Positions 27,223 to 39,068 of a DNA stretch of 64,000 nt are shown piece after piece. Position numbers and translations under genes: made by a program. The stretch comes from Candidatus Kapaibacterium sp. (GTDB lineage Bacteria; Bacteroidota; Ignavibacteria; Kapaibacteriales; Kapaibacteriaceae), in contig VEQR01000001.1 in assembly GCA_018883125.1 (NCBI GenBank), positions 1,497-65,496 on the forward strand, given 5' to 3'. Under the pieces are notes generated by a model, which worked only from the letters and a program-made list of their open reading frames with translations, did not search any database and had not been told where the DNA came from. Each line of letters starts with the position of its first letter. Positions within the stretch are counted from its first letter, which is position 1.

Positions 27223-30200
27223 ATGAAGATTCCGCGCCGATTTACGACGTCAGGAACAACCCCATACGAGATGTTTCGCTACACGATCAGAGAATCGGTG
27301 CTGCGAAACCAAAGCGGTAAAGAGATATTCCGGATGGACCATGTAGAAGTGCCAGAGGCATGGTCGCAGGTTGCCACCGACATTCTCGCTCAGAAGTATT
27401 TCCGCAAGGCCGGAGTACCGGTGACGGATGATGCCGGTGCACCGGTGCTGAATGAGGATGGAACTCCGAAGACCGGGGCCGAAACGTCGGTTCGTCAGGT
27501 GGTCCATCGGCTGGCAGGTTGCTGGCGGTGGTGGGGCGAGAAGTACGGGTACTTTGATACCGTAGAGGACGCTCAGGCGTTTTACGATGAGATCGCCTAT
27601 ATGCTTCTCAAGCAGATGGCCGCACCGAATTCGCCGCAGTGGTTCAACACCGGTCTCAACTTTGCGTATGGAATCACCGGATCGGCGCAGGGACACCTCT
27701 ATGTTGATCCTGACACCAAGACGCTGACACGTTCAGCCGACGCCTATACGCACCCTCAGCCCCATGCCTGTTTCATCCAGTCCGTCAATGATGATCTGGT
27801 GAACGAAGGCGGCATCTTTGATCTCGCAACTCGCGAAGCACGCATCTTCAAGTACGGTTCCGGTACGGGTTCGAACTTTTCCAATCTCCGTGGCGAGAGC
27901 GAGCGACTTTCCGGAGGGGGCGTCTCCAGCGGACTGATGTCGTTCCTGAAGATTTTTGACCGCGCAGCAGGTGCTATCAAGAGTGGTGGTACAACGCGTC
28001 GTGCCGCGAAGATGGTGATCGTAAATGTCGATCATCCGGACATCGAAAAGTTCATCGAATGGAAGGCAAAGGAAGAGGAAAAGGTTGCGGCACTGGTTGC
28101 CGGATCGAAGATCGCATCGACCTTCCTGCACGCCATCTCTGATGCAGCGCAGCAGGGTGGTACGGATGAGCAGACCAACGAGCGTCTGCGCGTGCTTATT
28201 CAGCGTGCACTCAACCGTGGCGTGCCGTACAACATCATCAAGCGGACGCTGGCGCTGATTGATCAGGGCTTTACGAACATCGACTTTGCGCAGTTCGATA
28301 CGCATTACGAGGGCGAAGCCTACAACACGGTTTCGGGTCAGAACTCAAACAACTCTGTTCGGGTGACGAACGACTTCATGGAAGCAGTCATCACTGACAG
28401 TTCGTGGAACCTGACGTGGCGAACAGACAGCACCAAGCACGTCACCGTGCGGGCACGCGACCTGTGGAACAAGATCAACATGAGCTCGTGGAAGAGCGCC
28501 GACCCAGGTCTGCAGTTCGATACCACGATCAACGAATGGCATACATGTCCGAACGACGGTCGTATCAACGGGTCGAATCCGTGCTCGGAATACATGTTCC
28601 TTGATGACACGGCATGTAACCTGGCCTCGTTAAATCTGGCTCACTTCTATGATGAGCCATCGCAGACCATCAAGATCGACGACTACCGTCATGCCGTGCG
28701 AATCTGGACGTCCGTCCTTGAGATCTCCGTTCTGATGGCCCAATTCCCGTCGGCAGAGGTTGCTCAGAATAGCTACGACTTCCGCACGCTTGGCCTTGGC
28801 TATGCCAACCTTGGTACGGTGCTCATGATGATGGGCATCCCGTATGACTCACCAAAGGCTCTTGCGATCTGCGGCGCACTCTCCTCGATCATGACTGGTG
28901 AGTCCTACGCGGCAAGCGCCGAAATGGCGGCCGATGTGGGCCCCTTCCCGAAATACGACAACAACCGCGACGCGATGCTTCGCGTCATCCGGAATCACAG
29001 GCGTGCAGCATACAACGCAGCAGACAGCGAGTTCGAAGGGCTAACGATTACGCCCATGGGTATCAGCGAGGAACTGTGCCCAGCCGACCTAATGGTGGCA
29101 GCTCGCACTGCATGGGACAAGGCACTTGCTCTTGGGGAAGAGCACGGATATCGCAATGCCCAGGCAACAGTGATCGCCCCAACGGGGACGATCGGCTTGG
29201 TCATGGACTGCGACACCACCGGCATCGAGCCGGACTTTGCGATCGTGAAGTATAAGAAGTTGGCCGGTGGCGGTTACTTCAAGATCGTTAACCAGTCAGT
29301 GCATAAGGCCCTTGCCGCTCTCGGATATTCCGATCAGCAGATCGATGATATCGAGAAGTACTGCAAGGGGCATGGCACGCTGATCGGCTGTCCGCACATC
29401 AACCGCCAGTCGCTCAAGGCCCTGAACTTCACCGATGAGGCCATCGACGCTGTCGAACGTCAGCTCGATAGCACCTTCGATGTACGCTTTGTCTTCAACA
29501 AGTACACACTTGGCGAGGAACTCTGCCAGCAGCTCGGCTTCAGCGCGCAGCAGCTTGACGATATGCAGTTCGATATGCTGACCGAACTGGGCTTCTCCTC
29601 GGAGCAGATATCGGAGGTGAACGACTATATCTGCGGTACGATGATGATAGAAGGGGCTCCTCACATCAAGGATGAGCACCTGCCGATCTTCGACTGCGCC
29701 AATAAGTGCGGCAAGCGCGGCGAACGCTACATCGATTACATGGCCCACGTGCGCATGATGGCCGCAGCGCAGCCGTTTATCAGCGGTGCTATCTCCAAGA
29801 CCATTAACATGCCCGCAGAAGCCTCCGTGGACAACGTTGGCGATGTGCACTTGGCTTCGTGGCGACTGATGCTCAAGGCCATTGCGCTCTACCGCGACGG
29901 ATCGAAGCTTTCTCAGCCCCTTAACGCCAGCAACGACAACTTTGATGAGATGGTGCTGTTGGGCGATCAGGACGATTGGGACGAAACCGTCGATCAGAAG
30001 GCCATCCAGAAGGTCATCGTCGAACGCGTCTACCAGCGCGCCGAGCGCCGTCGTCTGCCGAAGCGCCGTCACGGATACGTCCGTGAGGCAACCGTGGGTG
30101 GACACAAGGTGTACATTCGCACAGGTGATTTCGATGATGGCTCGCTGGGAGAGATATTCATCGACATGTACAAGGAAGGTGCATCCTTTAAGGGGCTTCT

Positions 30201-30696
30201 CAACTGCTTTGCCGTTCTAACGTCCAAGGCCCTTCAGTACGGCGTTCCGTTGGACGAACTGGTGGACACCTTCACCTTCACGCGGTTCGAGCCAGCCGGC
30301 TTTGTGGAAGGTCACGAGGCCATCAAGAATGCCACGTCCATTCTCGACTACATCTTCCGTACGCTTGGGTATGACTATCTACAGCGCACCGACTTTGTCC
30401 ACGTACCACAGGTTGATGCAGCTCAATCCAAGGCAAGCCTCGAAACGCCGGTTGCCAGCTCAGAAGCCCCTTCCCAGACTTCAGCAGATGTGATCTCTCC
30501 TGCACCCACCTACAAAGAGGTCATGGAAGCAGTCTCTGGTTCGGTGGATCACGATGGAGCCAAGTCGAAGCTTCTCGATCCCAAGAACATGGGTTACACA
30601 GGAGAGGCTTGTTCAAAGTGCCAATCCACACAGGTTGTTCGAAATGGGGCGTGCACAATGTGCTTGAACTGCGGAACAACTACAGGTTGCTCGTAA
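27223..30696 (+). CDS. nrdJ: Adenosylcobalamin-dependent (class II) ribonucleoside-diphosphate reductase
   Basis: 1157 aa. The N-terminus and core resemble NrdJ throughout, including the active-site region [16 protein letters not shown]. There is a C-terminal Zn-ribbon [22 protein letters not shown]. Confidence 0.92.
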
Positions 30697-36640: not shown

Positions 36641-37972
36641 ATGCACACGATGTGTGCGGTCTGCGGCGTACTGACGAGCCTGTATCTGTTGATAGCGGCC
36701 GTGCCGTCGTATGCACTGCTGCAAGATTCAACCTTGGAACAACGTCGCCGGCTTGCGGAGCATGCCCGGGTGATGTTTCCTCTTGATGGCGTTAAGCTCA
36801 CGATCCAGAACGTTACACTTGCCGCGTTCCCGGAGATAGGCCTGGTTGTTGAGTGTGACGGAGACTGCAAAGTACTCGACACGCTGAAAGCCTCAGCGCT
36901 AACGGTGATGGAGAATGGCGTAAAGCGGCCCGTTACGCGAATTCACAAGATCGACGTTAAGGAACGCGTACCAGTGGACTTCATGTTCGTGCTTGACGTT
37001 ACGGGTACGATGCAGCCATACATCAATGGCGTTCGAAACAACATTGAGGCATTTGTCCAGAATCTCTCCAAGCGAGGTATTGATTACCAGCTTGGCCTAG
37101 TGTTGTACAGCGACGTTGTTGAGGCGATCTATGAGCCAACCGACAGCGTTGGCAAATTCCTCGGCTGGATGAGCAAGGTTCAGGCATTTGGTGGATTTGA
37201 TGAGAAGGAAAATGCTCTTCAGGCCCTCTACGATGCCAGCCGTGCCCGATTCCGTCCGGCCGCCAACCGCGTTGCAGTGCTCGTGTCAGACGCCGGCTTC
37301 CATCAGGTTGGAGAAAGGGGCAGTGGGCGAACAAAGTTCAATGTTGAGACCATGATCGAGCACTTGAACGAGCTAAAGGTGCGCGCTTTTTGTATCGTTC
37401 CGTCAAACCTCAAACCCTATCAACGACTGGCAGAGGGTACAAAGGGTACGATCTTCGATCTGAACCAGTCGTTCGCAAAGATTCTTGATCTCTATTCGCA
37501 GCGACTGACGAATCTTTATACGATCTTTTACAAGAGCGACACGAAGGTTCGTAGCGATTCTATAAATGTTGCTCTTCTGGACGAACGAAAGAGAGAGCTG
37601 GTCAAGCAGATCATCCCGATCGTTGAGATCGGACGGAAGATCATAATTGAAAACCTTCTATTCCCCGTTGCTTCGTCGGTTCTTCCTGATAGCGTTGAAG
37701 AGCTCGAAGTCCTTAACGAATTCATGAAGAGCCGTCCTTCCGTGGTGGTGCGAATAGAAGGTCACACTGACAATACCGGTACTCCAAAGCAGAACAAGGC
37801 GTTGTCGCTATTACGTGCCGAAGCTGTTCGCGCCTACATGCTCAAGAAAGGGCTAGACCCCAAACGACTTATGGCCGTCGGACTTGGCTCAACGAAGCCT
37901 ATCGGTGATAACACAACGGAGTTTGGACGAAAGCTGAACCGACGGACGGAGATCGTGATCGTGGGTAAGTGA
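36641..37972 (+). CDS. VWA-domain protein with a C-terminal OmpA-like peptidoglycan-binding domain
   Basis: VWA region (FMFVLDVTGTM MIDAS-like motif ... AVLVSDAGFH). C-terminal OmpA_C signature (VVVRIEGHTDNTGTPKQNKALSLLRAEAVRAYMLKKG...NRRTEIVIVGK). Confidence 0.75.
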   Translation: MHTMCAVCGVLTSLYLLIAAVPSYALLQDSTLEQRRRLAEHARVMFPLDGVKLTIQNVTLAAFPEIGLVVECDGDCKVLDTLKASALTVMENGVKRPVTRIHKIDVKERVPVDFMFVLDVTGTMQPYINGVRNNIEAFVQNLSKRGIDYQLGLVLYSDVVEAIYEPTDSVGKFLGWMSKVQAFGGFDEKENALQALYDASRARFRPAANRVAVLVSDAGFHQVGERGSGRTKFNVETMIEHLNELKVRAFCIVPSNLKPYQRLAEGTKGTIFDLNQSFAKILDLYSQRLTNLYTIFYKSDTKVRSDSINVALLDERKRELVKQIIPIVEIGRKIIIENLLFPVASSVLPDSVEELEVLNEFMKSRPSVVVRIEGHTDNTGTPKQNKALSLLRAEAVRAYMLKKGLDPKRLMAVGLGSTKPIGDNTTEFGRKLNRRTEIVIVGK

Positions 37973-37974
37973 CG

Positions 37975-38420
37975 CCTTCGGCGTGGGGGACGCTTCGCGT
38001 GGGGGACGCCTTCGGCGTGCGAGACCTTCGGTGCGAGACGCCTTCGGCGTGCGAGACCTGCGGTGCGAGACGCCTTCGGCGTGTGGGACGCTTCGCGTGG
38101 GGGACCTGCGGTGCGAGACGCCTTCGGCGTGCGAGACGCTTCGCGTGGGGGACGCCTTCGGCGTGTGGGACGCCTTCGGCGTGTGGGACCTGCGGTGCGA
38201 GACGCCTTCGGCGTGCGAGACCTGCGGTGTGGGACCTGCGGTGCGAGACGCCTTCGGCGTGCGAGACGCTTCGCGTGGCGTCATCCCGAACGAAGTGAGG
38301 GACCTAGTGTGGGACGCTTCGCGTGTGGGACGGTGGTGTCACTCGTCTCTCGTACCCCGGGCCAAGGCCCGGGGCTATTATGGATGGATTGTCACTTGTC
38401 ACTCGTCACCCGTCACTCGT
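37975..38420. repeat. Mosaic GC-rich minisatellite of three short unit types (GRGACGCCTTCGGCGTGY, GRGACCTGCGGTGY and GRGACGCTTCGCGTGGG). It is followed by the palindrome CCCCGGGCCAAGGCCCGGGG and GTCACTYGTCAC units.
   Basis: Read directly from the sequence. About 19 units occur in irregular order. The first unit type contains a UUCG-loop hairpin (ACGCC-TTCG-GCGT). Confidence 0.9.
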
Positions 38421-39068
38421 CTACATCCCCAGCCCCTTGCCGCGAAATAGCTTGGCATATGCCGCATTGCCGGGGTGGGTGGTATCCATGCAGTTGACCA
38501 CGGTGACCGGACCCATGATGCGGGAGCGGATTTCGAAGGAACCAATAGTGCGTGTGGTGCGCGGGACAATGGTCGAAACATCGACTTGCGAGAGGTTGCC
38601 GACCAAGTAGAGGGTTGCCGGAAGTTCGTTCTTGGTAAGAAGCCCTCCGATCATCGACACGATAACGGACTGCTTGCCAAGAGGGAGCTTCGTTTCGGTC
38701 GACATTGCTTTGCGGAGGTTGCGCCGATACTCTCCAATTGATGCACACCATGGATCCGTCGTTGGCGAACCGATGATCATATCAGTCGTTGCAGTGTCTG
38801 CTCCAATGTCGCGCGTGATAACGTCGATGATACTGTCGGCACGACGCTGCTCAATGCGACTGAAGACCACGGTGTACACAACGCGCTTGGCGCTCTTGAG
38901 CTTTTGACGAGAGAGTACCTCACCCGGCTTGGTGGAATCACGGTATAGCGCGCCCAGGACAACTGCCGTAACGGCCAGGACAGCAACGATGATGTAAAAG
39001 TACAGCCAACCATTCTTTGTGGTTGGCGGCAGCATCGACGCATTGTCGTCAAACTCTTCTGTGCTCAT
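38421..39068 (-). CDS. Hypothetical membrane-anchored protein (N-terminal TM helix, extracytoplasmic domain)
   Basis: 215-aa ORF. The TM helix is WLYFYIIVAVLAVTAVVLGAL. It is the last gene after yebC and purF on the minus strand, and its start is 4 nt from the purF stop. No family was recognised. The GTCACTCGTC repeats supply its last codons. Confidence 0.5.
   Translation of the reverse strand: MSTEEFDDNASMLPPTTKNGWLYFYIIVAVLAVTAVVLGALYRDSTKPGEVLSRQKLKSAKRVVYTVVFSRIEQRRADSIIDVITRDIGADTATTDMIIGSPTTDPWCASIGEYRRNLRKAMSTETKLPLGKQSVIVSMIGGLLTKNELPATLYLVGNLSQVDVSTIVPRTTRTIGSFEIRSRIMGPVTVVNCMDTTHPGNAAYAKLFRGKGLGM

Follow-up and report, generated by a model that had tools for sequence, protein, structure and literature searches.

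A mosaic mini-hairpin array behind a Kapaibacterium envelope gene belongs to a lineage-restricted family of polar repeat arrays at gene 3' ends

The repeat block between two convergent genes in the analysed window (the whole stretch of 64,000 nt from the Candidatus Kapaibacterium genome G000) is best explained as a REP-derived, slippage-driven and sense-polar 3'-UTR minisatellite, which would be tolerated at this position and may be mildly useful there; any influence on the 3' ends of RNA would be modulatory. We assign this reading a probability of roughly 0.55. The family to which the array belongs is an unusual member of the polar intergenic tandem repeats, built from mini-hairpin units.

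Composition of the repeat block

The dense repeat block described in the original prediction is real, as a reversed control pattern gave no match in G000 and at most one in any of 201 genomes, compared with 117 units with a five-bp stem. TRF placed a tandem array at window positions 37971-38345 (periods 18, 32, 48 and ~130; scores 194-428). Splitting at GAC boundaries yielded 20 canonical units placed head to tail and two that are degenerate; the exact copy number carries some uncertainty because the genome is a short-read metagenome-assembled genome (MAG). The three unit types of the original prediction have to be extended to four at this locus (A-D) and to more than three genome-wide. Each canonical unit consists of GAC, a mini-palindrome and GTG, followed by a 3-nt linker which is CGA, GGG or TGG in this array; the stems measure 5, 4 or 3 bp. 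All units run in a single direction, in the order A B A D A C A B C A B A A C A C C A B ... B, and the + strand of the array is G-rich with a GC skew of +0.21.

Table 1. Repeat features and flanking genes of the block, in window positions
Feature	Position	Strand	Remarks
VWA-OmpA envelope gene, 443 aa	36641..37972	+	Pfam OmpA 1.4e-19, VWA 8.6e-09; coding score 0.21
Core array, 19 head-to-tail mini-hairpin units (18/16/14 nt including linker)	37971..38277	+	loop on + strand T-N-C
Unit A, GACGCCTTCGGCGTG			9 copies in array 37971-38345
Unit B, GACGCTTCGCGTG			5 copies in array 37971-38345
Unit C, GACCTGCGGTG			5 copies in array 37971-38345
Unit D, GACCTTCGGTG			1 copy in array 37971-38345
CGTC-headed hairpin GCGTCATCCCGAACGAAGTGAGGGAC	38278..38303	+	short member of a 14-copy family
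Degenerate array tail: GACCTAGTG, intact B unit (38313-38325), GACGGTGGTG	38301..38345	+	
REP palindrome GTA-CCCCGGGCC-AA-GGCCCGGGG-CTATTA	38352..38380	.	
Four RAGTGAC heptamers	38391..38420	-	3' array of the convergent gene; begin 2 nt past TAG stop
orf215, convergent, 215 aa	38421..39068	-	stop TAG 38421-38423; coding score 0.24

Four repeat families make up the block, namely the hairpin-unit array, a CGTC-type hairpin, a RAYT-associated REP palindrome and RAGTGAC heptamers (Table 1). The array starts on the upstream gene itself: the GAC of its first unit shares bases with the TGA stop codon (37970-37972) of the VWA-OmpA gene (junction AAGTGACGCC). The CGTC-headed hairpin directly follows the last unit of a hairpin array in 4 of its 14 copies (contigs C39, C67, C170 and C190). 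Both the palindrome CCCCGGGCCAAGGCCCGGGG (38355-38374) and the GTCACTY heptamers (38391 to 38420/38421) were found as claimed earlier, and the core of the REP palindrome occurs in 174 copies on both strands of the genome, 82 of them with the CTA tail. The heptamers had been thought to supply the stop-proximal codons of the minus-strand gene orf215; they lie 3' of its stop codon and supply no codons, the minus strand reading TAG-AC-GAGTGAC-GGGTGAC-GAGTGAC-AAGTGAC. Six RAGTGAC arrays in G000 begin 0-3 nt past a co-oriented stop codon and none abuts a convergent one. The gap between the two genes is thus made of two opposed 3' arrays that meet at a REP. The convergent gene orf215 matched no Pfam or NCBIfam family and is conserved in 28 of 29 loci of the genus.

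Elsewhere in the window, an open reading frame for a class II ribonucleotide reductase (27223-30696, + strand, 1157 aa) has an internal TACO1/YebC_N-like match and a TSCPD domain. An insertion such as an intein is suggested by alignments with relatives, which cover just 86-88% of its length.

Distribution and turnover of the family

The hairpin-unit family is genome-wide, yet restricted to one lineage. The G000 MAG (2.9 Mb, 199 contigs, 55% GC) carries 12-16 arrays, some of them on small contigs which may derive from another strain. Among 201 genomes of the order, covering 65 genera, units with a five-bp stem were multi-copy in four genomes only, all from one genus (117 units in G000, 56 in G001, 120 in G003 and 73 in G021). 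The remaining 197 genomes gave 0-1 such units each, the same level as the reversed control (0-1), and the 172 genomes of the order outside the genus likewise gave 0-1 matches each. Among the matches listed by a scan of all species representatives were single, scattered ones in unrelated GC-rich genomes and one Kapaibacterium contig with multiple matches. The main family comprises a variety of stems (ACC/GGT, ACGC/GCGT, ACGCC/GGCGT and ACGGC/GCCGT) framed by G..G, with a purine- or G-rich linker of 3 nt. Unit E (GACGGCTTCGCCGTG) is a further type with a five-bp stem, and T-G-C and T-A-C loop variants occur as well. G041 and G012, which have no arrays of this family, hold other mini-hairpin arrays of the same plan, such as GCGAC-TAC-GTCGC and GTGC-TTC-GCAC, which have G-rich linkers and show T-N-C as the loop when read along the adjacent gene.

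One of the small contigs, C170 (2.2 kb, locus L209), bears a 15-unit array; its DNA is 96% identical to G003 (C48, L215) and only 71% identical to the sister species G041. It represents either a contamination of the MAG by a G003-like strain or a recent transfer of the segment.

Unequal recombination, proposed earlier for the shuffled unit order, or slippage is supported by the array itself, in which a segment of eight units (~130 nt) is duplicated at 86-92% match, and by the orthologous gap of other species, which is filled differently or not at all. We could read this gap in 24 of 29 loci of the genus. About 12 species, including the sister species G041 with a gap of 20 nt, have a gap of only 14-40 nt with homologous remnants, and a TAA or TAG stop codon (TGA in G041). 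The gap comprises 455 nt with A/B/C/D units in G000, 281 nt with mainly B units in G003, 373 nt with D units and E-type units carrying a TGC loop in G021, and 330 nt with a different hairpin unit, TCGC-TGC-GCGA, in G001; other 7-8-nt repeats are found in other species. A single metagenome scan yielded one locus of 86% identity, which has a compact gap without an array. A tree of four local genes groups G000 with the array-free G041, G003 with G021, and G001 with the array-free G012 and G016, so that the family requires at least three gains or losses. As the gap is compact in the sister species and differently filled elsewhere, the array at this locus is derived, fast-evolving and dispensable.

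The compact gaps of 20-40 nt in array-free species (L010-L019) contain a short hairpin, the 3' arm of which (AGCCCC) lies inside the coding end of orf215. This hairpin may be a shared bidirectional terminator that was replaced by the arrays. A further observation concerns orf215, which in G000 is 90% identical to its orthologue in G001 and only 73-76% identical to those of all other close species, whereas the flanking genes (93-99% identity) mark G041 as the sister of G000. This pattern points to an exchange of the allele, one breakpoint being inside the repeat-filled gap, and a similar pattern was seen at the C75 locus. The family marks places at which species seem to have exchanged neighbouring genes.

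Anchoring on stop codons

The original prediction had tied the block to the upstream transcription unit. This connection is supported, since the array is anchored on the stop codon of the VWA-OmpA gene and co-oriented with that gene, like the majority of the family's arrays. Of the 39 arrays in the four genomes, about 24 have their start between -2 and +18 nt relative to the stop codon of a gene in the same orientation, a count that includes three arrays behind ribE orthologues and relies, as do the other polarity counts, on our own codon-score gene calls trained on this genome and not on curated annotation. The 3' end of an array lies within 20 nt of a convergent stop codon in only two of the 39 cases, and three arrays sit between divergent genes. 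In gaps which contain two convergent arrays (G003:C59, G001:C74 and G021:C44), each array adjoins its own gene; polarity therefore tracks the gene and not the direction of replication.

At the locus of ribE, a riboflavin-synthase-like gene, the open reading frames of the orthologues in G003:C1, G021:C44 and G001:C74 (L038, L048 and L055) enter the first array unit in frame. These proteins end with ..KYAV followed by six to seven array-derived residues, and a TGA linker serves as the stop codon.

RNA structure and the role of the envelope operon

A first alternative, as in the original prediction, takes the array for an RNA element under selection in the envelope operon, where it would act as a multi-hairpin terminator or stabilise the 3' end. 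A sense-oriented array that begins at the last stop codon of the operon and keeps its stem complementarity would agree with such a function, as would the short hairpin of the ancestral compact gap that the array replaced; moreover, REPs have been proposed as mRNA stabilisers (PMC3733652). The energetics argue against it. The tetraloop hairpin ACGCC-TTCG-GCGT of the original prediction has to be re-registered as ACGCC-TTC-GGCGT with a 5-bp stem and a 3-nt loop, the cUUCGg register leaving a C-C mismatch. Nearest-neighbour energies of the unit hairpins amount to -6.6 kcal/mol for A and E, -3.3 kcal/mol for B and -0.8 kcal/mol for C and D, which is weak, and the fold of the whole block is no better than that of dinucleotide shuffles (z = +0.73). 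Its minimum-energy structure pairs units over long distances instead of forming a row of local hairpins. Hence, neither the predicted string of stable tetraloop hairpins nor an exceptionally stable global RNA fold is retained.

An intrinsic (Rho-independent) terminator is rejected because the combination of a GC-rich stem-loop and a T/U run is missing: a search for a stem followed by a T-run between 37500 and 38900 found no site on either strand. Rfam 15 contained no family matching the block, the only hit being a chance snoRNA match (E = 0.29) outside the array. A role specific to this operon is further contradicted by identical units behind unrelated genes (ribE, a Lon-like gene and a STAS-like gene), by the absence of the array at this locus from the sister species and most of the genus, and by the 8 of 26 arrays with a called downstream gene that precede a co-oriented one. 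Taken together, a selected RNA element of the envelope operon is unlikely and a dedicated operon terminator is not supported. A modulatory role at the RNA level is possible and would fit the polarity.

Hairpin constraint and the invariant loop

Complementarity is well preserved within the family. Perfect palindromes account for 96% of 551 units tokenised from the four genomes, a percentage that counts copies and not independent events. Units A and E differ by one pair that was flipped in a compensatory manner from C-G to G-C, and hybrids with the left arm of A and the right arm of E make up ~3% of the units. B and D correspond to A minus one or two pairs, lost symmetrically from both arms. Template-switch correction of quasi-palindromes is a known mechanism, and either this process or selection on structure could yield the preserved complementarity.

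The loop is even more uniform than the stems. About ten distinct complementary stems have the T-N-C loop in common, and essentially all 551 units have T at the first and C at the third position of the loop, so that the middle base alone varies. The antisense strand of each unit reads C-GNA-G, that is GCGAAGC in B and E, CCGAAGG in A and D and CCGCAGG in C. All clusters of at least five hairpins with a 3-nt loop in G000 are of the T-N-C/G-N-A kind; they were collected by a generic scan (3-nt loop, stem of at least 4 bp) which we used for large clusters only, as it loses the 3-bp units and thereby fragments arrays.

This uniformity agrees with a second alternative, in which the relevant structure forms in single-stranded DNA: the antisense C-GNA-G motif, the core of the extraordinarily stable DNA mini-hairpins, would drive slippage or act as a barrier or protein-binding site during replication or transcription. 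GCGNAGC mini-hairpins are reported to be far more stable as DNA than as RNA (PMC13037366). Common descent alone may nevertheless explain the identity of the loops. Nearest-neighbour DNA energies of the units (-2.6 to -4.4 kcal/mol) showed no difference between the strands, although the parameters may miss GNA loops, and the adjacent CGTC-type hairpins carry their GNA loops on the opposite, sense strand. In addition, a replication mechanism does not predict that the polarity of paired convergent arrays follows the genes. We therefore regard a function as single-stranded DNA structure as improbable to about the degree of the RNA element.

Slippage alone leaves the sense polarity and the exact starts at stop codons unexplained, and it does not account for the invariant T..C positions of the loop while the stems vary. 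Stop anchoring, strict sense polarity and the invariant loop leave room for arrays that are not passive slippage products. They would be made or maintained by a process tied to how gene expression ends, either seeding coupled to the termination of transcription or translation or selection for an RNA 3' cap; the invariant T-N-C triloop (G-N-A on the antisense strand) with its G-rich linker would then be the recognition unit of a putative dedicated factor. If true, such a process would explain the anchoring on stop codons, the sense polarity, the complementarity over at least ten stems and the patchy spread among species. We consider it a speculative proposal that is rather unlikely to hold.

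Relation to REP elements and RAYT genes

The REP palindrome of the gap belongs to the family that flanks the IS200-like RAYT genes of the genus in inverted orientation. A third alternative is a BIME-like cluster, in which the units would be miniature REPs mobilised or amplified by the RAYT (IS200-like Y1 transposase) of the genome. Besides the RAYT-type REP inside the block, two observations speak in its favour. Inverted CCCACGGCC..GGCCGTGGG REPs flank the RAYT gene of G000:C39 (L002:1751-2125, - strand; Pfam Y1_Tnp 2.2e-23), and E-unit arrays lie outside these REPs on both sides in direct orientation. Furthermore, G012 and G016 have a REP core, ACGGC-TTCA-GCCGTGGG, to which unit E (ACGGC-TTC-GCCGTGGG) is almost identical. 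On the other hand, all seven RAYT loci examined are flanked by the 20-nt CCCCGGGCC/CCCACGGCC REP, and only that of G000:C39 has hairpin units beside it. Orthologues of the RAYT occur in 20 of 29 genomes of the genus, and many of these 20 lack arrays. Conversely, no orthologue was detected in G003, the richest in units among the four genomes.

The units themselves also depart from REPs in structure. Their core of 9-13 nt with a stem of 3-5 bp is shorter than the imperfect palindrome of 20-40 bp with a stem of mostly 6-9 bp that characterises REPs. They have no unpaired GTAG or CGTC tag, the 5' GACG being inside the stem and GTAG being absent. Within arrays every unit is placed head to tail, an arrangement that is negligible among REPs, the clusters of which are dominated by head-to-head or tail-to-tail pairs (PMC3733652). 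Like REPs, the units are extragenic, reach high copy numbers and often occupy gene 3' ends. They equally lack the features of CGTC REPs (a stem of 8-9 bp starting with A-T, a loop of 4-5 nt and a CCA-like 3-nt tail), a description which better fits the element at 38278-38303 and an 85-copy family, CGTCATTCCCGCGAAAGCGGGAA. The RAYT was rejected as the array-mobilising enzyme, as its distribution does not match and the REP at its flanks is a different one, and a BIME-like cluster is decidedly unlikely.

Contig C67 nearly duplicates C39, with flanks of 90-97% identity, and carries 16 units in an array whose variants follow one another in a different order.

Behind the orthologue of the G000:C75 gene in G012 (L225) and G016 (L227), the 3' end of the REP (..GCCGTGGGAA) is repeated three to four times in tandem, as ACGTGGGAAA or GCGTGGGAA. 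These duplications indicate that REP ends can seed short arrays in this genus. Since the presence of a RAYT does not track the family, a REP origin of the hairpin-unit arrays relies on sequence resemblance, which suggests that REP hairpins seed them.

Assembly artefacts and coding repeats

An assembly artefact or a protein-coding repeat is extremely improbable: several arrays lie at contig ends, two frames of the + strand stay open throughout the array and the ribE frame of other species runs into the first unit, but the longest exact internal repeat measures only 48 nt, independent assemblies show arrays at orthologous sites, the units of 18, 16 and 14 nt shift the frame, the coding scores of the array frames are -0.015 and -0.07, and a protein-family search returned only a trivial low-complexity match. 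Misassembly, which the original prediction had named as a possible refutation, is also at odds with the location of the block in a 94-kb contig with synteny kept on both flanks. A CRISPR-like reading was rejected as well, because the array has no spacers.

Proposed origin of the arrays

According to the preferred reading of a REP-derived minisatellite, the units would descend from the RAYT-type REP hairpin of the genus, more precisely from its core. Replication slippage together with unequal recombination would have grown and shuffled the arrays, and the formation of hairpins would favour both processes. The arrays presumably persist at gene 3' ends because insertions are tolerated there, and they would be transcribed as 3' UTR. 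As part of the transcript, the local hairpins may hinder 3'-to-5' exonucleases in their progress or reduce read-through towards the convergent gene. Such an effect would be modulatory and non-essential, without the function of a dedicated terminator.

The family illustrates a plausible way in which REP hairpins could turn into minisatellites. As the units are hairpins with an invariant loop, the hypothesis of a structural function becomes testable, with RNA against single-stranded DNA and the sense against the antisense strand. In practice, the arrays break short-read assemblies of Kapaibacteria MAGs; they could also serve as high-resolution strain markers.

Comparison with known repeat systems

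Single motifs of the mini-hairpin kind are well characterised. The d(GCGNAGC) DNA mini-hairpins described by Hirao and co-workers resist nucleases and bind SSB poorly, and CCGAAGG forms a mini-hairpin in the plasmid ssiA origin (review PMC13037366). GCGAAGC is present exactly on the antisense strands of B and E, and CCGAAGG on those of A and D. The literature reviewed there concerns single motifs at phage and plasmid origins and synthetic uses, and tandem chromosomal arrays at gene ends are not described in PMC13037366.

The TAACTGA direct repeats of Beggiatoaceae, cyanobacteria and some Bacteroidetes occur in 2-6 copies, mostly towards start codons; they contain stop codons, have no predicted RNA structure and were proposed to act post-transcriptionally (MacGregor 2015, PMC4679880). 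The arrays described here resemble them as short, direct, intergenic repeats which are dispersed, biased in orientation and patchy among lineages. They differ in that they trail stop codons, reach 49 units in the largest arrays and consist of palindromic, stop-free units.

REP elements show a comparable mixture of likeness and difference. GTAG REPs mostly have stems of 6-9 bp and loops of 2-20 nt, and head-to-tail dimers are negligible among them (Di Nocera et al. 2013, PMC3733652); CGTC REPs have stems of 8-9 bp and loops of 4-5 nt (PMC3733652; Ton-Hoang et al. 2012, PMC3333891), and the GTAG-1 REPs of Thauera combine 5-bp stems with arrays beside genes (PMC3733652; PMC3333891). Our units share with REPs and BIMEs the short extragenic palindromes, the high copy number, the position at gene 3' ends and the variation among species, and their core resembles the local REP core. 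Their stems of 3-5 bp, 3-nt loops, missing tag, strict head-to-tail order and inconsistent association with a RAYT set them apart.

A close parallel is found in the heptamers GGGAATC of Xanthomonas and GGGGAYT of Nostoc, which are arranged head to tail between genes with the G-rich strand as the sense strand, 0-50 bp from a stop codon or overlapping it (Rehm et al. 2015, PMC4692102). Two convergent arrays often share one gap in these organisms, and their function is unresolved (PMC4692102). All of these features, namely the head-to-tail intergenic arrangement, the G-rich sense strand near the stop codon and the paired convergent arrays, recur in the hairpin-unit family. Whereas such arrays have units of 5-11 nt, as do the heptamers at 38391-38420 behind orf215, the hairpin units are mini-palindromes of 14-18 nt with mixed stem lengths and mosaic order, and regular quadruplex G-tracts are absent because CGA linkers interrupt them. 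Short polar arrays that hug stop codons are known from Xanthomonas, cyanobacteria and a few other lineages and are still unexplained; new in the family from Kapaibacteria are units that are themselves hairpins, a complementarity kept by compensatory changes and an invariant T-N-C/G-N-A loop.
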